Of a DNA stretch of 64,000 nt, positions 2,090 to 60,722 are shown in pieces (within the stretch, counting starts at the first letter, position 1; every line of letters starts with the position of its first letter). The notes beneath the pieces are model-generated. The model was not told the DNA's origin, ran no database searches, and saw only the letters and a program-made list of their open reading frames with translations. The position numbers were made by a program, and so were the translations under genes. The stretch is from Chiloscyllium plagiosum (taxonomy: Eukaryota). The stretch covers positions 83,250,345 to 83,314,344 of the forward strand of contig NC_057718.1 in assembly GCF_004010195.1 (NCBI RefSeq). Reading direction: 5' to 3'.

Positions 2090-3186
2090 CCGTCCATTTT
2101 AAAGTGTCCACAAAGTTTTTAGCTTTATCCGTTGAGTCAAATATATAAACTGAGTCCTTGTGGCTGAAACGAAGTACTGCAGGGTATCTCATGGAGTACT
2201 GGATACCCATGTCCACAAAGTTTTTAGCTTTATCCGCTGAGTCAAATGTATAAACTGAGTCCTTGTGGTTGAAACGAAGTACTGCAGGGTATCTCATGGA
2301 GTACTGGATACCCAGGTTCCCCAGCCTCTTTTTAACTTATCGAAGGACTTCCTCTTTCGAATTACAGCTGCAGAGAAATCCTGGAAAAACATGATTTTTG
2401 ATCCCTTTAACAGCAGTGCCTGCGGATCCTACCCAGGGATCTGGAAGCTTCTATGACTTTTTGCTTGTCCTTATATGAGTGGAACTGCACTAAGACTGGG
2501 CGGGGGCACTGCACTGGCCCTGACCTGTGCACTGTAACCCAATAAGCCCTTTCAATCTGTAGCCTGCTGGACTCAATGTGAAGGCCCAAGAACTTCGTCA
2601 GCCAGCTTTCAAAGAAGCTGACTGGCTCCTCACCTTCAGGGAGCCTGACAATTCGGAGATTTATCCTCTGACCTCGATTTTCGAGGTGGTTGATATGGTT
2701 CTGCAAGGCCTGCACATCTCGCTCCAGCACCTGGATCCGACTGGATGAGGATTCCATCGCAGCTTCCGAGGCCTTAGTTCGTCCCTCCAGCTCCTCCAGC
2801 CGCTCCCCGAGGCCCTGGTCTCCTGCTCATGCTTCTGCAGCATGGATGCAATAGGTTGGACCTGGGCATGAATCGCAGCTTCCGAGGCCTTAGTTCGTCC
2901 CTCCAGCTCCTCCAGCCGCTCTGCCGAAGCCCTGGATCTCCTGCTCATGCTTCTGCAGCATAGATGCAATAGGTTGGACCTGGGCATGAATCTCTCCAAG
3001 GATCTCCTCAATCGCAGCCACAACTTTCAAGGTAAGTCTCTCCATCGCCGCAGCCAATTCCTGTGAGTCTGTCAGGTCCCTATGGGGTTCAGGAGAGGCT
3101 GCTCCTCTGGCAGTTTCTGGTATGGTAGGTACTGCAGGGGAGTGTCCTCCCTGCTGCTGTTTGCCTGTTCCCTTTCCCTTTGGCAT
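2090..3186 (-). pseudogene. LINE-1 ORF1 (coiled coil + RRM + CTD), disrupted
   Basis: Fragments read MPKGKG..., LENRGQRINLRIVRLPEGEE, IERAY, PRPVLVQF and YSMRYPAVLRF, typical of vertebrate L1 ORF1. Confidence 0.85.
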
Positions 3187-3203
3187 CTTTCCCACTCCCA
3201 AAT

Positions 3204-3800
3204 TGTAAAGTATAGGGTTAAAATTGTGCAGAATAAGGGAACAGGTGTTGCTTCTGCAAAAGCTTACTTTATAAAATTGGGCTGCGCATGCAAATACTGA
3301 ACAGTGAGAAGCGAAAACAGGTAGAATTATCTATGACTAATAGGGCAGAGTGACCGTGTAGCGGGATGTACCAGTAACAGGAGAATAGTGTGTCAGTCGC
3401 AGGAGGGATGTGGCCAACGGATGGAAATTAGTTTGGCAGGATGATCGCACGAAGACAGCAAACTATGCCAGGATAGTCACATATAAGGAATGAGATAAAT
3501 AAGAGTAAGGGGCGACAGGCTTAGAGTAATGGGAGAAGTAAACAGAGGCGGAGAGAAACTAGACAAAGGTGGAGTGAAGCTAGAGCTTGTGATTGATTAC
3601 TCTTGCTGTAGCGCGTAGCCTATGTGGTGAAAGGGGAGCACCGAGAGACTCAGCTGAAAAGCATAAATCAGAATGTAACCCTCAGATCGGGGTGCTTACT
3701 TGTTAGGCACCTGTTCTTGCAAGTACGTATCAATAAAATTTGCTGCTTCAGAATTTGACTTGGACTGAAATTTATTAATATGTGAGTTTTGTTTGTCACA
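3204..3800 (+). repeat. 5' LTR
   Basis: TGTAAAG...TCACA, direct repeat of 9553-10147; AATAAA at 3732; TATA-like CATAAA at ~3662. Confidence 0.95.
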
Positions 3801-3803
3801 ATT

Positions 3804-3823
3804 TGGGGGCTCGTGTCCGGGAT
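3804..3823 (+). promoter_or_regulatory. Primer-binding site, tRNA-Pro type, with a 2-nt insertion
   Basis: TGGGGGCTCGT-GT-CCGGGAT versus the canonical Pro PBS TGGGGGCTCGTCCGGGAT, 3 nt after the LTR. Confidence 0.9.
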
Positions 3824-4104
3824 GTCCATCATCATCAGCAGGGTGGGCACTTTCGACGGCTGGGAAGACACATCCCATTCCTTTTAGAACGGTCCTGTGT
3901 TCCTCAGCAGTGGGTTCCCCCTTCTGGTTGACTGATCAAGATCCGATGAGAGTCTATCTGAACCAGGCGAAAGGTTGTAAGTAGGCACAGGGAGCCAGGC
4001 AACTCCGTGCATGGACCAAGGTAGGAAAAGAGATTTTTAAGTACTGCCTTGGTGGCTGGGATTAAGTTCTAGTAGTTAATAAGTGTCTAACGAAGGAAAT
4101 CAAT

Positions 4105-4870
4105 ATGAGCTGTGCTGTGGGTAAAGTAAAAGCCTCCGGAAAAAAAAATGGAAATGGAGGCAGGGTCCCTGACAACATACCTCCAGAAAGTCCTTGGGCA
4201 GGATATTGTGGAATTGGAAAAATAGTACTTGTACGAGGCAAAAAGATAGCAAAATGATGATTAAATATTGTTGCTTTGTATGGACTAAGGAATCCATTCT
4301 TCGTCCTGCCGTCTTCTGGCCAAAGTACGGGTCGGACGAAGACTGTGTTTGTAAATATTTGAATTTATATGTCAACAGAAAACAGCCTTTCAGTCAGGAG
4401 GGATCAGATTATGCTTCGTGTTGGAAGGGCTAGTAGCTGAAGAGCCACTGAGGATACACTTCGTAACTAAACCATGACCAGACATCCAGAAAAAAAATTC
4501 AGAAAATAGATGGGTGGAGTAAGAAATCACTTGAGGAATTATTAAGAGAGGCACAGAAAGTGTTTGTAAAGAGAGAGGACGAGAAGCAAAAACAGAAGGC
4601 GAAAATGATGGTAGCCACGATTGACGAAGTAGTCAAGAAAAGAATTGAACCGGTGACTAGCAACCGGAGTGGAGGGTGGCAGCACGTAGAACATAGAGGA
4701 AGGGGTAGAGGACAAAGAGGACCTTTCGTAAGGTCCAGTTGACAGGGACAAGGACAGAGGTGGAGACTCCAACAAGCAGGGTATTATATCCAGAAAAAGT
4801 TTCAAAAGAGAGAGGGGTGGAGCAAGAAGCCTCTAGAATTGTTGTTGCAGGAAGCTCAGAAAGTGTCTGT
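4105..4870 (+). pseudogene. gag: gag remnant (MA plus the C-terminal part of CA; internal deletion)
   Basis: MMIKYCCFVWTKE..FWPKYGSDED..SQEGSDYASCW (HERV-I-like MA, recognised from memory), then PDIQKK..LEELLREAQKVFVKR. Confidence 0.85.
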
Positions 4871-5834
4871 GAGATATGGTGTGTGTGTGTATGTATGTGT
4901 ATGTGTGTGAGTGAGAGAGAAAAGAACTGTAGCTAATACAAAGTTTAACCCTTTGTGATTCGGTTTGAATGCACATTTGTCTGTTGGTGATTGAATGTTT
5001 GTGCTTTGTTCCCTGGAGCTTGAGATCCAGGACTGTTTTGAATCTGATTTCTATTATGGAAATTTAACATGATTTCTTTTAAGATTAAGGATTTTACAGT
5101 GATTATGAAATAAAATGTTAACTTCTGTTCTTTTTACAGGTCATGACTGCCTTACTATCAGTTTCTAACTAATCTCTTTTATCCTTACATAAAAGCGATT
5201 CCAAATCAGCTTAATACGGAGGAAAACAACATAACCTTTTTTTGTGTTTCAGACTCATTTGTTTTCACTTAATTTTAAGCCGCAGCTTTATTCAGAAAGT
5301 TCCCTCCCTCAATGACAGTTGAAGTTTGAGTTCAACATTAGATTGTAATAAATCAATCCTATGGTTAATATCTGTGACCTTGGATTCGACCATTATTCAT
5401 GCATTAGAAGTTTTTTTTAAACTTGAATAGACAAATCCTTTTAAGACAGCTCTGGTTATTTCATTGTAATTGAGCAATGACTGGTCAGGACTACTTAAGA
5501 AAACTAATTTTGGATTTAAATTAAGGGACTAAAACCAGGTAATAATAGTGGATTTCAAAGTTGGGAACTGTATGCATTTTACATTTTAAATATTAAATAC
5601 TGAATAAATGAATTTATAATATATAAATATATATTTATAAGAAAGATTCAGCTCAGTAATTGATCTGGCAACATAACATGGGAGTGGGAACGAAAGAGTT
5701 AATTGGATTATGGCGACAGTTTTGTGATGAGAGGCATGAAGAATCAGTTTTGCGCTCATGACAAGATACTGCCACCAAATTGGGGATTGAATTAACTGCA
5801 AATGGTGCTATGAAATTGGTTGAGGTATTTACAT

Positions 5835-7546
5835 TATAGAATATCAGACTAAAGTAAGAATGGACCTTAGAGATATTCCTCTACATGTAGGGGCCAGGTG
5901 TTCATTGATGGGTCCTCCAGAGTGATTGATGGTAAAAGACACAATGGATATGCGATAGCGGATGGAATAGAGGGGAGTGTTACTGAGGCTAGTTGACTAC
6001 CCAATGATTGGTCGGCTCAGACTTGCGAACTTTATGCACTAGGAAGGGCTCTTAAGACCTTGGAAGGCAAAGAAGGAACTGTATACACAGATTCTAAGTC
6101 TGCCTTCGGGGTGGCACGCACATTTGGGAAGATACGGCAGGAGAGGGGACTGATAAACAGTAGGGGTAAAGAACTGGCTCATGAGGAATTGGTAAAGCAA
6201 GTATTAGAATCCCTTTTGTTGCCGAAGGAAATAGCAATAGTCCACATAAATGGACATCAGCAGGGAAATGATCCAGAAGCAAAGGGAAATAGATTAGCGG
6301 ATGAAATCGCTAAGGAGGCAGCTCTGAACCCTCTACCTGCTACAATATACATATTTTGGTACCAATGGTGCAGGAACCTGGGGGGAGACCGATATTTAGC
6401 GCTAAGGAAGAGAGAGAGTTAGAAGAACTGGGAGCTACGCAGACAGTAGAGGGGCGCTGGATGCTACCCGATGGCCGGGAGATGCTAAATAAGATGATGA
6501 TGCAAGAAATTATTGCTGTCTTACACCAGGGGAGTCACTGGGGAGTGCAAGCAATGTGTGATTTGGTCTTAAGGAAATATGGATGCAAAGGGATCTATAC
6601 GATAGCCAAACAGATATGTGAGGGATGTATAACATCCAAGAAAATCAACAAGGTATTGAGGACACAAGTCCCAGGAGGGAGAGAACCTGGGCTCCGACCA
6701 TTTCAGAGCATTCAGGCAGATTATACCGAATTACCCCGAGTGGGAAGATTGAGGTAAATACTGGTAATGGTTGATCACCTATCTGGATGTGTGGAGGCAT
6801 ATCCTTTAGCCACTGCCACCGCAAGTGGGGTGTCCAAGATAATACTTGAACACATAATCCCCAGATATGGGATAGTCGAGTGCATAGATTTGGATCAGGG
6901 AACTCATTTTACTTCCAGGATACTCCAGGGAGTAATGAAGGGGTTAGGAGTCTCCTGGGAGTTCCACACCCTTTGGCACCCACCTTCATCAGGAAAGGTT
7001 GAGAGAATGAACCAGACACTCAAGAAGCAGTTATCGAAATTAGTAATAGAAACCAGACTCCCTTGGACTAAGTGTTTACCAAAAGCCCTTCTGCGAGTGC
7101 AGACGGCCCCAAGGAAAGATATGGGGCTGTCCCTTTATAGGATATTGTTTGGCCTGCCCTATCTGGGAACGAAAGGGGAACTGCCAACCATGGAGACTAA
7201 AGATCTGTTCTTAAAGAAGTATATACTGGGCTTGTCCTCCTCTTTGCCTTTTCTTAGGAAACAAGGATTACTGGCACAGACTCCGCCCCTTGAATTCGCC
7301 ATTCATCCCATGTGGGGGATTGTAGGGAGATTGGGCCATAATTAAGTCATGGACAGAAACTAAATTGCAACTGGATTGGGAGGGACCGTACCAGGCTCTT
7401 TTGACGACTGAAACGGCGATACGCACGGCGGAGAAAGGCTGGACTCACTACACCAGGATTAAAGGACTGGTGGAATCCCCGGTTAAGAAAGAAGTCTGGA
7501 CAGCCAAATTGACGGAAGAACCACTGAAACTCAGACTTTAAGTAAC
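5835..7546 (+). pseudogene. pol: pol remnant: RNase H and integrase
   Basis: FIDGSS, SAQTCELYAL, VYTDSKSAFG and KGNRLAD (RNase H); HQGSH..CEGC zinc finger, D..D..E and WEGPY. In-frame stops (e.g. 6755-6757) and frameshifts are present. Confidence 0.92.
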
Positions 7547-7637
7547 TGATTTTTATGCGGACGCAGGATAGTTTCTTTTTGATATCTATATATTGTATTA
7601 CATGTTAAATCTCTCGGTCCTTCAATACTATTATAGG

Positions 7638-9528
7638 ATGCTGGGGATGCTTAAGGTTACCATATTAGCTTTCTTAGTATTGGGATCTTGTCAAAAGATG
7701 CTGTCATCTCCATATTTGTTATTAATGGTCCCGGAGTCTGAATATCCGCAAGTAATAGAGGTCGATGCTTGCAGCCTAGTAACATGCACAGATGTGAAGT
7801 ATCAGAGGGAAGATATTTCCTCCAAAATCTTTATTAAGATCCGACTGGACACAGGATATGGTTCGCAAACACTGCCACCTGGCATCACTATCCATAGAAC
7901 CCCCTTTCACCCAGCCCTAGACTGTCCTGACAAAAAGTGCCACCCGATATATCTCACCATTAGAAATACCTCCTCTGAAGACTCCTTTCCCTGTAAAAAC
8001 GGGTCTCGACTCCTTAGTAATGATTTAAAGATAGTAATGGCTGCCACTGGGAAGTGTTTCTCGGGCTGCTATTTCCGAATAGCCGTAGGAAACAGAAAAC
8101 GAGCCAAACAACTTGATAATAAGATACATCCTTTTGCCCCTCCCAATAACCCAAAGGTGGTAAAAATTATAGAAGTCAAGGACTTGAAGCAGACCATTGA
8201 AATAGAAACTGGATACGGGGACGCAAATGCCTGGGTTGAATGGGTAAAGTACACTGTTAAAACTCTGAATAAAAGCATGTGCCTCCGGTAGACCTGTTGC
8301 CCACATAGTCCCCTTTCCGCTCAGGTGGAACCAAAACAGGAAGGGCAAGGAATGTATGATAGCCCTGTATCAGGATAAGACTGCATGGAATGATAGGAAT
8401 TGTACATCCCTATCTCTAATGTTCCCTCCCTTGCAGAAGACAGATTTGAAAGCTCCCCTCCTCCCATTTTTGACCATGGTCGGGAATCACACATCGTGTA
8501 TAAGCCAACAGGGTACAAATCTGTCTAGAAACTTGGGGGAGCTGAGGTTATGTATAGAAACTCAGAATGACACCGAAACGGACAAAGGAGGGAACTACTC
8601 AGCACTCCGCGTTCCCCGGGTGGATCTCTGGTGTTACTGTGGAGGCAGAATATTGCGACCTACCCTACCTCCTGACTGGAGAGGGATATGTGCAATTGGA
8701 AATCCCATCCACCTTGGCATTTGAGAAGGAGAAGGTGGTAGTAACAAAGAACGAGAGGAGTAAAAGGTCGTTATTAGATACTTCCTTTGATGATAGGATT
8801 TATCTTGACTCTATCGGAGTTCCTAGAGGGGTCCCCAATGAGTTCAAGGCCTGCAACCAGATTGTAGCAGGTTTTGAATCGGCCCTATTTTGGTGGGTAA
8901 CGGTCAACAAAAATGTGGATTGGATAAACTATACTTTTTACAACCAGCAAAGATTCATCAATTACACTAGAGATGCAGTCAAGGGTATTTCCGAGCAACT
9001 TTATGCAGCAGAATGGCCTGGGAAAACAGACTGGCCTTAGATATGATCCTAGCTGAAAAAGAGTGTTTATGGGTGATGTTAGGAGGTAAATGTTGTACCT
9101 TTATTCCAAATAATACAGCACATGATGGTTCAATCTCTCGTGCCTTGCTGGGGTGGACCACTTTGGCGGAAGAATTGGCTGAGAATTCAGAAGTGGACAC
9201 ATCACTCACGGGATGGCTGGAATCAATGTTTGGGAAGTGGAAAGGCGTGGTAGTGTCCATCCTCACCTCCCCGATAGTGGTAGCAGGGGTACTGACAGCA
9301 ATTGGCTGTTGTATCATACCTTGTGTACGAGGGTTAACCAAGCGGCTAACTGAGATGGCCTTAGCAAAACAAATGCCTCTAAAAGGTAAACAGGCAGAGG
9401 GACTCAACCTCTTGAACAATGAGGGGATGGGTAACTTTAAGGAATTAGCCACTATAAATGAAGTCTCAGCGATGATGCTAGCCAACTGGAAGGCAACGTA
9501 TGAAACAAATGCAGAAGACAACACTTAG
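7638..9528 (+). pseudogene. env: env remnant, gamma-type, frameshifted
   Basis: Signal peptide; furin site RSKR (~8755-8766); DSIGVPRGVPNEFKA..NKNVDWINY; immunosuppressive domain WENRLALDMILAEK with GGKCC; hydrophobic anchor. Confidence 0.92.
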
Positions 9529-9533
9529 TAGCC

Positions 9534-9551
9534 AAGAAAAAAAGTGGGGGA
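9534..9551 (+). promoter_or_regulatory. Polypurine tract
   Basis: AAGAAAAAAAGTGGGGGA just before the 3' LTR. Confidence 0.9.
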
Positions 9552-9552
9552 T

Positions 9553-10147
9553 TGTAAAGTATAGGGTTAAAATTGTGCAGAATAAGGGAAAAGGTGTTGC
9601 TTCTGCAAAAGCTTACTTTATAAAATTAGGCTACGTATGCAAATACTGAACAGTGAGAAGCGAAAACAGGTAGAATTATCTATGACTAATAGGGCAGAGT
9701 GACCGTTGCGGGATGTACCAGTAACAGGAGAATAATGTGTCAGTCGCAGGAGGGATGTGGCCAATGGATGGAAATTAGTTTGGCAGGATGATCGCACGAA
9801 GACAGCAAACTATGCTGGGATAGTCACATATAAGGAATGAGATAAATAAGAGTAAGGGGCGACAGGCTTAGAGTAATGGGAGAAGTAAACAGAGGCGGAG
9901 AGAAACTAGACAAAGGTGGAGTGAAGCTAGAGCTTGTGATAGGCTACGCGCTACAGCAAAAATAACCAATGGGGTGAAACGGGAGGAACGAGAGACGCAG
10001 CTGAAAAGCATAAATCAGAATGTAACCCTCAGATCGGGGTGCTTACTTGTTAGGCACCCATTCTTGCAAGTACGTATCAATAAAATTTGCTGCTTCAGAA
10101 TTTGATTCGGACTGAAATTTATTAATATTTGAGTTTTGTTTCTCACA
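9553..10147 (+). repeat. 3' LTR
   Basis: Copy of 3204-3800, ~97% identical by hand count outside the 9939-10000 block. Confidence 0.95.
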
Positions 10148-10300
10148 CGAATATTAACAAATATGTGATCTGTAAGGTTTTAAATTAATAATTCCACCAC
10201 ATAAGTTGGCCAGGGATGGCAAAAGACACCGGTATGCCTTGGCTGTTAGGCAGAGCTGACAACAGCAGTTCTGCAGAATTGCCACCATCTTGCTTGGATT
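10148..10300 (-). mobile_element. Displaced 5' end / 5'UTR of the LINE-1
   Basis: The minus strand reads CAAGATGGTGGC (YY1-type L1 start motif, 10281-10292). Removing the provirus joins this segment directly to the ~17 nt upstream of the ORF1 ATG. Confidence 0.6.
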
Positions 10301-10710
10301 CTTATCTGGTGTTTGATGGGGGGGTTCCTGCATGCAAACATGTAGTCATGTACAACTCCGAAGGCATATTGGCTATCTGCATAAATGTTCACAATTCTCC
10401 CCTTTGACAGCTCAAATGCTTTGGTTAGCACTACCATCGCTGCTACTTGTGCGGACTGAATTCCGTCAATCCTTCCTGACGTAGCGGTCTCTCGTTTATA
10501 ATTTACCATGGCCCATCCTGTGCGGGGTGACCCAGCTACATATTTCCATGACCCATCCACAAAGAGGGTCTCCTTGACTGTGTCTAGGGGTGTATGCTTT
10601 ACCCTACACTGATCTTCATCCCCATTTATGTCTCCGCAATTGTGTGATTCCCGTGTCCAGAATTCCCTTGGCTGGGTTTTTAGTTCTATTTTGTTTTTGT
10701 CAATCCAATT
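10300..10710 (-). pseudogene. pol: RNase H / tether remnant of a second ERV
   Basis: TPLDTVKETLFVDGS..RTGWA..SAQVA..VNIYADSQYAFGVVHDY..PIKH. Confidence 0.85.
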
Positions 10711-11806
10711 CTGCTGCTATACTAAATGTCTGGGATGGGTCCCAACCACCTTTCATGTTCTGTCAGCGCTAGTCTGTCTGCCTTGTATTTCTCAATAAAG
10801 GAACCTGCACTATCGCCTTTAAAATCCTACCTGCCATCTCAGAGATTGTGTACCCCCTAATACCACCAACAGTAAAGTGCCCTTAACCAGTGGGGATTTC
10901 TCTACCCCTGGCCACTAATACTTGTCCCAGCACCATCTGTATGGCCGTAGCAGCCACCTAGCAAGGTGTGCTCTCTACCGGTGGGACTTCTTTACCTTCC
11001 CAGCCACTACTACTAGTTGGCATCTACCAGTCGGCTATTAATTTCGGGTCAATAGGGTGTGCTCTCTACCAGGACTCCTTTACCCTCCCAGGCACCTTTA
11101 CTGTTCCAACACCACCCGTTAGGCCCAGAAACGTCCCTCTAGCCCGGTGTGGTCTCTATTGGGGGGACTTTTTATCCTACCAGCCACCGCCACTATTCAA
11201 ACTCTATCGTTCTACTACAGACAGATAGGGTGAAACGGTTACTCAGTGTCCACACTTAGCACTCCGTAACATGCTACTCCATTGGAGTTTGGCTCTTGGT
11301 CAGAGTGATCAGATTCTTTTCCTCACCACTTCAATTTAAAACAGGATAACAGACAGTACCCAACCTTTAACCAGGCTCTAACTGGACTCTGCGTTGATTG
11401 CCCCTACAGAGTCCAACATTACCCGACTTTGCCACTTGTACTTCACAACTGCTAGTGCCCTTGGTGCCTCAATTCTCATTTCAATTCCCAACCATCACGC
11501 AGTGGGGTGCTACCCCTCTTAACAACTGGTTTAGGGCAGGGTTTTCGAGGCAGGCACTACCTTGTCCTCTGGTTGTTTCAGCACAAGCAGCTGGTTATCA
11601 CACCAGTTAGTACACTTTCCCACTTACGCTCCACAGGCATGCACTTATACTCAAACCAGTACGATCACACAAGTTACTCGTTACAATGGTATATCCTTTT
11701 AAATTGTGTCTTTGGCCGGGTCTGACTCTCCTCGTTTACAGATTCAAAGTGTGTCTTACCCCAGCTTCCTGATTGTGAACTTTGACCAGAACACTAGAAA
11801 TAGGAG

Positions 11807-19361: not shown

Positions 19362-19606
19362 AGCTACCCCACCAAGAGTCAATGAGCGTGGTGCTGGAAA
19401 AGCTCAGCTGGTCAGGCAGCATCTGATGAGCAGGAGAGTTGACTTTTCAAGCATAAGTTCTTCCTGATGAAGAGTTTATGCTCGAAACGTTGATTCTCCT
19501 GCTTCTCGGATGCTGCGTGACCGGCTATGCTTTTCCAGCAGAACACCTTTTGACTCCGATCTCTAGCATCTGCAGTCCTCACTTGCTCCCAGCTTTACCA
19601 ACAAGA
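19362..19606. repeat. Palindromic Penelope-derived element with hammerhead core
   Basis: Inverted arms; CTGATGA-AGAGT ttat GCTC-GAAACGTT at 19464-19491; degenerate flanking direct repeats. Confidence 0.7.
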
Positions 19607-46793: not shown

Positions 46794-48417
46794 GAACATA
46801 GAATATCGAACTATACAGCGCAGGACAGGTCCTTTGGCCCTTGATGTTGCGCCGACATGTGAACTATTCTCAGCTTGTCCCCTACACTATCCCATCATCA
46901 TCCAAGGATTGTTTAAATCTCCCTAATGTGGCTGAGTTAACTACATTGGCAGGTAGGGCATTCCACACCCTTACCACTCTGAGTAAAAACCTGCCTCTGA
47001 TATTTGTCTTAAATCTATCACCCCTCAATTTATAGTTATGCCCCCTCATACAAGCTGACGTCATCATCCGAGGAAAAAGACTTTCACTGTCTACCCTATC
47101 TAATCCTCTGATCATCTTGTATGTCTCTATCAAATCTCCTCTTAGCCGCCTTCTTTCCAATGAGAACAGATCCAAGTCTCTCAGCCTTTCCTCATAAGAC
47201 CTTCCCTCCAGACCAGGAAACATCCTGGTAAATCTCCTCTGCACCTTTTCCAATGCTTCCACATCCTTCCCAAAATATGGCGATCAGAACCGTACACAAT
47301 ATACCAAGTGTGGCCACAGTAGCGTTTTGTATAGTTGCAGCATGATATTGCGGCTCCGGNNNNNNNNNNNNNNNNNNNNNNNNNNNNNNNNNNNNNNNNN
47401 NNNNNNNNNNNNNNNNNNNNNNNNNNNNNNNNNNNNNNNNNNNNNNNNNNNNNNNNNNNNNNNNNNNNNNNNNNNNNNNNNNNNNNNNNNNNNNNNNNNN
47501 NNNNNNNNNNNNNNNNNNNNNNNNNNNNNNNNNNNNNNNNNNNNNNNNNNNNNNNNNNNNNNNNNNNNNNNNNNNNNNNNNNNNNNNNNNNNNNNNNNNN
47601 NNNNNNNNNNNNNNNNNNNNNNNNNNNNNNNNNNNNNNNNNNNNNNNNNNNNNNNNNNNNNNNNNNNNNNNNNNNNNNNNNNNNNNNNNNNNNNNNNNNN
47701 NNNNNNNNNNNNNNNNNNNNNNNNNNNNNNNNNNNNNNNNNNNNNNNNNNNNNNNNNNNNNNNNNNNNNNNNNNNNNNNNNNNNNNNNNNNNNNNNNNNN
47801 NNNNNNNNNNNNNNNNNNNNNNNNNNNNNNNNNNNNNNNNNNNNNNNNNNNNNNNNNNNNNNNNNNNNNNNNNNNNNNNNNNNNNNNNNNNNNNNNNNNN
47901 NNNNNNNNNNNNNNNNNNNNNNNNNNNNNNNNNNNNNNNNNNNNNNNTAAGTCATTTATAAAAATGACAAATAGCAATGGTCCCAAAACAGATCCTTGTG
48001 GTAACTGGACTCCAGGCTGAATATTTTCCATCAACCACCACTCGCTGCCTTCTTTCAGAAAGCCAGTTTCTAATCCAAACTGCTAAATCACCCTCAATTC
48101 CATGCCTCTGAATTTTCTCCAACAGCCTACCATGTGGAACCTTATCAAAGGCTTTACTGAAGTCCACGTATACCATGTCAACTGCCCTACCCTCATCTAC
48201 ATGCTTGGTCACCTTATCAAAAAACTCAATCAAGTTTGTGAGACACGACCTGCCCTTGACGAAACCATTTTGACTATCTGAAATCAACATGTTGCTTGCT
48301 AGAGGATTATAAATCTTATCTCTTATAATCCTTTTCAAAACCTTTCCTACAATAGAAGCAAGCCTCACTGGTCTATAATTACCTGGGTCATCCCTACTGC
48401 CCTTCTTGAACAAGGGT
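46794..48417 (-). mobile_element. Young CR1 LINE 3' portion spanning the assembly gap
   Basis: NYRPVRL, DFSKAFDKVPH and PQGSVLGPLLF before the gap; LEKVQRRFTRM..RGDLIETYK after it. Confidence 0.92.
47360..47947. other. Assembly gap (588 N)
   Basis: Run of n. Confidence 1.
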
Positions 48418-55652: not shown

Positions 55653-55911
55653 CTATTTTAAAGTTTTTAAAAATGTGTTGCTGGAAAAGCGCAGCAGGTC
55701 AGGCAGCATCAAAGGAACAGGAGAATCGACGTTTCGGGCATAAGCCCTTCTTCAGGAATGAGGAAGAAGGGCTTAAGAAGGGCTTATTCCCGAAACGTCG
55801 ATCCTCCTGTTCCTTTGATGCTGCCTGACCTGCTGCGCTTTTCCAGCAACACATTTTTAAGCTCTGATCTCCAGCATCTGCAGTCCTCACTTTCTCCTAT
55901 TTTAAAGTTTT
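55653..55911. repeat. Palindromic Penelope-derived hammerhead element with 15-bp target duplication
   Basis: CTATTTTAAAGTTTT at 55653-55667 and 55897-55911; ~85-bp inverted arms; core on - at 55728-55755. Confidence 0.88.
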
Positions 55912-60480: not shown

Positions 60481-60722
60481 CTGCACTATCACAGGAGAAA
60501 GTGAGGACTGCAGATGCTGGAGATTAGAGCTGAAAATGTGTTTCTGGAAAAGCGCAGCAGGTCAGGCAGCATCCAAGGAGCAGGAGAATCGACGCTTCGG
60601 GCATGAGCCCTTCTTCAAGACCTGAAGAAGGGCTCATGCCCGAAACGTCGATTCTCCTGCTCCTTGGATGCTGCCTGACCTGCTGCGCTTTTCCAGCAAC
60701 TCATTTTCTGCACTATCACAGG
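60481..60722. repeat. Palindromic Penelope-derived hammerhead element with 15-bp target duplication
   Basis: CTGCACTATCACAGG at 60481-60495 and 60708-60722; core at 60622-60649. Confidence 0.9.

Follow-up and report, generated by a model that had tools for sequence, protein, structure and literature searches.

Gene conversion between LTRs is a familiar process in endogenous retroviruses and LTR retrotransposons, in which a converted tract of limited length leaves the two LTRs of an insertion in disagreement and so biases dating. Short-range template-switch events, reportedly brought forward by Loytynoja and Goldman in 2017, are said to be a source of mutation clusters. Microinversions form a further described class: the part of the human-chimpanzee study available to us deals with 59 events of 17–33 nt, which are usually pure (45 of the 59 are exact) and have flanking repeats of at least 3 nt, and it favours microhomology-mediated break repair where the repeats are short or imperfect (Potapova, Kondrashov and Mirkin, 2022; PMC8755829). 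With regard to CCAAT boxes, the accessible portion of another paper places NF-Y binding at −40 to −100 and describes the orientation of the box as largely irrelevant (Fleming et al., 2013; PMC3730095).

The window, namely the whole 64-kb stretch of DNA analysed here, contains a provirus at 3204–10147 whose 5′ LTR carries a genuine inversion in the core promoter (Table 1). Letters 3592–3623 are the reverse complement of letters 9939–9970 of the 3′ LTR at 29 of 32 positions, and the two segments occupy the same position in both LTRs; the coordinates and the count of three mismatches given by an earlier, sequence-only reading were right. The inverted match stops sharply, one extra letter per side adding two more mismatches, and the best reverse-complement score between the two LTRs is 23, whereas none of 60 Markov-resampled LTRs scored above 11. 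All three internal mismatches (3596, 3600 and 3602) are transitions and represent only a mild excess (p = 0.06). In an exhaustive four-point search, a single switch in place was the best model and none improved on it; 8 differences are left over. No other copy of the LTR or of the inverted segment was found in the 64-kb window. The first and last two letters of the segment (AT/AT) are self-complementary and constitute the only repeat, of 2 bp, at the breakpoints, the minimal inversion being the stretch between them (3594–3621). The sequence-only reading had described the segment ends as imperfect inverted repeats. Such 8-bp arms do exist and pair at 6 of 8 letters, which is equalled by 25 of 9588 LTR segments of 24–40 bp (0.26%, at a threshold set post hoc), but they are not the breakpoints, since they sit inside the flipped piece. 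Because the imperfect arms were themselves exchanged along with that piece, the breakpoints are placed in the outer 2-bp AT/AT, and the event was therefore not a loop turning within a fixed stem.

Table 1. Features of the provirus and its insertion site (positions in the window; X21, raw single-cell RNA reads of organism A)
Feature	Position	Strand	Remarks
Left target-site copy (5 bp), within a minus-strand L1-like element	3199..3203	+	4/5 match to 10148–10152
5′ LTR (TG...CA), derived copy	3204..3800	+	93.8% to 9553–10147; 2.8% different outside 3592–3651
Two 21-bp tandem units, shared unchanged by both LTRs	3542..3583	+	Just upstream of the flip
Inverted segment, minimal inversion 3594–3621	3592..3623	+	29/32 to the reverse complement of 9939–9970
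Broken CCAAT core of the flipped copy	3592..3596	-	Roughly −97 to −93 relative to the tentative start
Five-transversion cluster (3625, 3633, 3639, 3641, 3650)	3625..3650	+	Related copies mostly have the 3′ LTR letter at 3625, 3639 and 3650
TATA-like hexamer	3662..3667	+	Tentative start site 27 nt further on, at about 3689
Polyadenylation signal	3732..3737	+	Poly(A) after about 3750: 4 X21 reads with an A-tail
Primer-binding-site-like stretch, 2-letter insertion	3804..3823	+	Other copies omit 2 letters at 3813
Decayed internal region	3824..9533	+	gag remnants, ~1 kb of AT-rich DNA, RNase H, integrase and env-like frames; all broken
3′ LTR, family-type orientation	9553..10147	+	Comparison with related contigs
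Unflipped segment, imperfect 8-bp end arms (6/8)	9939..9970	+	Intact CCAAT at 9966–9970 (about −70)
Right target-site copy	10148..10152	+	4/5 to 3199–3203

The flip is linked to a compact block of substitutions. The 28 letters that follow it (3624–3651) contain 5 transversions and 0 transitions, and the remaining 537 aligned LTR letters contain 11 transitions, 4 transversions and one 2-bp gap (2.8%; K2P 0.029); the excess of transversions next to the flip is pronounced both by Fisher's test (p = 2e-5) and by a Poisson estimate that allows for 21 windows (6e-5). The earlier observation that the next ~28 bp hold 5 transversions against a divergence of ~3% elsewhere is thereby confirmed. A search for a nearby donor of this block or a second hidden inversion gave neither: the runner-up match in the window has 11 mismatches in 31 letters, and local reverse matches extend to at most 8 bp. 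Twelve letters common to both LTRs of the provirus differ from many related copies, and thus the two LTRs are sisters outside the patch. Their overall identity is 93.8%, and LTR dating calls for caution here: if every letter of the patch is scored separately, 39 differences are obtained in ~595 letters (6.5%) instead of 2.8%.

The direction of the change was read from related copies. Four of 24 sequencing runs, all from relatives of the host and with a largest share of sampled window words of 0.29, were compared over 3022–3921: X1 (organism A, contigs), X8 (organism B, contigs), X16 (organism C, contigs) and X21 (organism A, raw single-cell RNA). Variants were displayed only where they differ from the 5′ reference, leaving aside 224 rows (3600, 3602, 3633 and 3641 among them) and 3182 pieces; summed depth is not equal to copy number, and contigs drop rare variants. 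At 9 of the 9 displayed sites at which the two LTRs are discordant, related copies carry the letter of the 3′ LTR, which is also the majority letter at the displayed sites, except at 3621 in X8, which is ambiguous (reverse-laid contigs match the window). At 3596 and 3625, the entire depth is of the 3′ type in X8 (920 and 781) and X16 (74 and 79), with zero for the 5′-type letter, and the raw RNA reads are likewise of the 3′ type (3/3 and 1/1, only 1–4 raw reads lying over the segment). The loose ends at 3592, 3593 and 3623 in related copies are 3′-type junctions. Neither the displayed contigs of organisms B and C nor the few raw RNA reads over the segment contain the flipped form, and exact-pattern scans of metagenome and viral contigs, collections not expected to contain such a host, gave no match. 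Because the reads and contigs of three related organisms show the 3′ orientation as the norm, the 3′ LTR has the family orientation, and it is the 5′ LTR that is derived. As a separate observation, related LTRs of organisms A, B and C have joints going back 68–83 letters (window 3300–3388), a U3 duplication that is absent from the window provirus.

The flipped form does occur in one contig of organism A. The fourth record of X1 (140 letters, depth 32.2) spans 3520–3680 with 1 other letter and 21 gap letters and fits the flipped form, and a 3′-type copy has 24 differences over the same span, at least 8 of which remain after any single 21-letter gap. At 3558, 3596, 3621 and 3625, the X1 depth that remains for the letter of the window equals 32.2 exactly, and the record ends exactly 30 letters past 3650, as expected if 3650 is the last private letter at a word length of 31. 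Since the flipped form and its linked letters are present in an independent data set, mis-assembly is ruled against, including the case raised by the sequence-only reading in which both LTRs would in fact share one orientation. The record accounts for 0.5–2.1% of the summed depth at 3558, 3639, 3650 and 3659. The two orientations are thus not both common among the copies: the flipped form makes up 0.5–2% of the summed depth in X1 and none in X8 or X16, contigs being prone to under-report rare forms. A family with two promoter orientations, as had been proposed, finds no support in a single listed contig from one of three organisms that has no CCAAT core. The 21-letter gap of the record is absent from both window LTRs and likely lies at the 21-bp tandem pair (3542–3583); the contig may represent the orthologous LTR with a later 21-bp deletion. 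No displayed piece joins the record to a flank. A complete orthologous provirus in organism A fits poorly, because no X1 contig has the window's letter at 3427 (common to both LTRs) and the word share of organism A is no larger than that of organism B (0.29 versus 0.28).

The provirus itself is a single, old and defective insertion. Its nearest named protein relatives, which have the same MLV-type integrase C-terminal domain, are from Chiloscyllium, Leucoraja and Narcine (shark, skate and ray; 57–62%), so that the element is a class I-like (gamma/epsilon-like) endogenous retrovirus and its host probably a cartilaginous fish. Its internal frames are broken by stops or frame changes, the gag and env labels were assigned by position and appearance (no Pfam match), and the integrase C-terminal domain (MLVIN_C, E = 3.8e-06) scores below the curated cut-off (26.9 versus 29.2 bits). 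The primer-binding-site-like stretch is presumably akin to a tRNA-Pro site. The protease and reverse transcriptase of related Pol proteins have no match in the provirus; a TG microsatellite and ~1 kb of AT-rich DNA (32% G+C), possibly host DNA, replace them at 4870–5880. A gag-like stretch of 77 bp is found twice, at 4491–4567 and 4794–4870 (70% identity), which suggests either an ancient duplication or a fragment from a second, diverged lineage of retroviruses.

Copies of the empty site, in which the left repeat continues from 3203 into the right flank, are present in 18, 21 and 2 contigs of X1, X8 and X16, respectively. Because the flanks are collinear in these copies and the target-site copies agree at 4/5 letters, the provirus is one insertion, and a chimeric provirus formed by crossover between two loci is rejected. 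The left-flanking element was labelled L1-like from the look of its reading frame (no Pfam match) and contains near-perfect tandem duplications at 1678–1753 (38 bp), 2105–2314 (105 bp) and 2756–2992 (~118 bp). Just to the right of the insertion, upstream of the L1-like element, lies a separate RNase H remnant on the minus strand (10246–10716; 30–36% to the relatives of the provirus), and copies of a short repeat family occur at 19376–19556, 55670–55898 and 60493–60707, some of them head to head, forming long imperfect palindromes. Among the 22 long frames to the right of the provirus, no host gene was identified; they yielded retroelement domains and two sub-threshold matches only, and short exons would escape such a survey.

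With respect to the promoter, the CCAAT box is intact in the 3′ LTR at 9966–9970, and CCAAT is absent from either strand of the flipped 5′ segment, in which the mismatch at 3596 hits the core. In 15 raw RNA reads of X21, a loose end that resembles a template-switch adapter precedes 3689 (with an agreement of only 0.6); no shared start is tabulated for the X21 reads, and the start site is tentative. These RNA reads carry letters unlike those of the window provirus and therefore come from another family copy. A start at 3689 would put the TATA-like hexamer at −27 and CCAAT at −70, and the flip by itself would shift the box to about −95, within the range of −40 to −100. Since the orientation of CCAAT is reportedly largely irrelevant, the flip alone would not be a switch, and because the CCAAT core is lost, the flipped box is a damaged box rather than a second orientation. 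Any effect on the promoter could stem from the loss of the core, not from orientation, in a provirus that is dead anyway. Another member of the LTR family also seems to initiate a transcript that is spliced in organism A: 15 X21 reads leave the LTR at 3781, where a GT donor (3782) connects them to a foreign exon that is absent from the 64-kb window. The donor is intact in the 5′ LTR and absent from the 3′ LTR.

Any account of this locus has to start from what is shown: an inversion of known direction that is linked to the transversions and rare among the visible copies, at a single insertion site. We lean towards a one-off microinversion in the host germ line, accompanied by a burst of error-prone synthesis next to it and inherited by the related organism A. 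After integration, a single germ-line accident would have inverted 28–32 bp within the 5′ LTR without moving them. In the repair pathway that we infer, DNA synthesis during fork restart or break repair may have jumped at the 2-bp AT to the other strand, read the segment from there and found its way back through the imperfect 6/8 arm, used as microhomology. The transversion cluster could have arisen in the same step, either by error-prone copying or from damage to single-stranded DNA next to the junction, and the flip would predate the split from organism A. In retroviruses, the U3 of the 5′ LTR is not transcribed, and the window's copy could therefore not have spread the flip. The size of the segment lies within the class of 17–33 nt in the available part of PMC8755829; the 8 extra differences and the presence of only 2 perfect flanking letters count against a one-off microinversion. 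Alternatively, a small sister subfamily with a flipped U3 might have donated a tract of at least 57 bp (3594–3650) to the 5′ LTR by gene conversion, the contig of organism A being another member. Conversion from a sister LTR subfamily had been offered by the sequence-only reading, and we regard it as a serious though unlikely candidate, with a flipped contig in organism A and none among the displayed contigs of B and C. It would explain why the inversion and the transversions form one compact block and why the flipped form occurs in another organism with a 21-letter gap that the window locus lacks; moreover, contigs may lose short bubbles, so that more flipped copies could be hidden. However, only 1 flipped contig is among those displayed, and a gradually diverged donor is expected to show mostly transitions, yet there are 5 transversions versus 0 transitions (p = 0.008), and thus a complex one-step event is needed in a sister subfamily too. 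Two rare events would be required, as against one for the germ-line microinversion, and an exchange of flanks between the loci is excluded.

The restriction of the change to the 5′ LTR bears on a further possibility, namely that reverse transcriptase made the flip in plus-strand strong-stop DNA and that the LTRs were unequal from integration on. Plus-strand strong-stop DNA becomes the 5′ LTR only, which is the LTR that such an error would affect, and neither the impurity of the event nor its clustered transversions are typical of microinversions that arise in a host genome. Nevertheless, the 5′ location is a one-in-two chance under any model, and the scheme requires a switch to a plus-sense template ahead of the growing end followed by an in-register return, which is speculative; a targeted literature search found no reports of such events, and we consider this origin improbable. 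An artefact of assembly or polishing can hardly be credited, given that an independent run contains the flipped contig with its linked letters at a depth of 32.2; the window has one gap (588 N), far off at 47360. The same small credence applies to a reversible promoter switch driven by a hairpin or a recombinase, for which the 6/8 pairing of the end arms, matched by only 0.26% of LTR segments, might speak. The segment folds with an energy of −0.5 kcal/mol, a value equalled or bettered by 166 and 168 of 200 shuffles; with no stable fold and with arms that changed places along with the loop, hairpin-loop inversion is rejected, and the hairpin-mediated flip of the CCAAT box proposed earlier is unsupported. 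A switch is also at odds with the broken state of the flipped box and, according to the argument in the accessible part of PMC8755829, a segment of <33 bp lacks the length needed to form a loop in site-specific recombination.

If the flip is a one-off, it provides a clean cross-species example of an impure microinversion, in which the paired LTR and the family serve as built-in references, and it is useful as a lineage marker because such events rarely recur; it shows no regulatory switch. An origin by reverse transcription or from a flipped subfamily, if true, would bear on how far the LTRs of a provirus can be trusted to be identical at integration, and in the former case the provirus would preserve, as a fossil, an inversion that reverse transcriptase had introduced in place. 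A narrow literature search, which is a weak basis for novelty, found no report of a microinversion between paired LTRs.

Compared with CCAAT promoters and LTRs that bind NF-Y, as described in the available parts of the sources (PMC3730095; PMC12065363), the unflipped arrangement is alike in that its CCAAT box, at about −70 and followed by the TATA-like box at −27, lies in the NF-Y band of −40 to −100. In those systems, the orientation of the box is reported to be largely irrelevant; here, the core of the putative NF-Y site is lost as well. LTR gene conversion differs in that the present patch contains an inversion, the donor subfamily being only a candidate. Short-range template switches, as far as the accessible part of Walker et al. 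(2021; PMC7954356) describes them, share with this locus a mutation cluster produced by copying of the opposite strand between two switch points, but here the best single switch leaves 8 differences, and no hairpin is present before or after it. The closest likeness is to the microinversions of Potapova et al. (PMC8755829), which, in the part of that study available, are in-place inversions of the same size class (17–33 nt) with short imperfect inverted repeats at their edges and have been attributed to template switching or microhomology-mediated break repair, as is proposed here. With a near reverse complement in place of 28–32 nt (29/32), the segment exceeds the 15 nt that is the least required of a microinversion. 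Its flanking repeat is a borderline case: 2 letters at the edges are perfect, compared with a perfect or nearly perfect repeat of at least 3 nt in that study, and the 6/8 repeat overlaps the inverted piece, the arms having been exchanged with the loop. The microinversions of that study are mostly pure, whereas 3 internal and 5 adjacent substitutions are found here, against a tendency of 0–2 differences that is not a strict definition. The flip accordingly belongs to a described kind of mutation, from which it departs only by its impurity.
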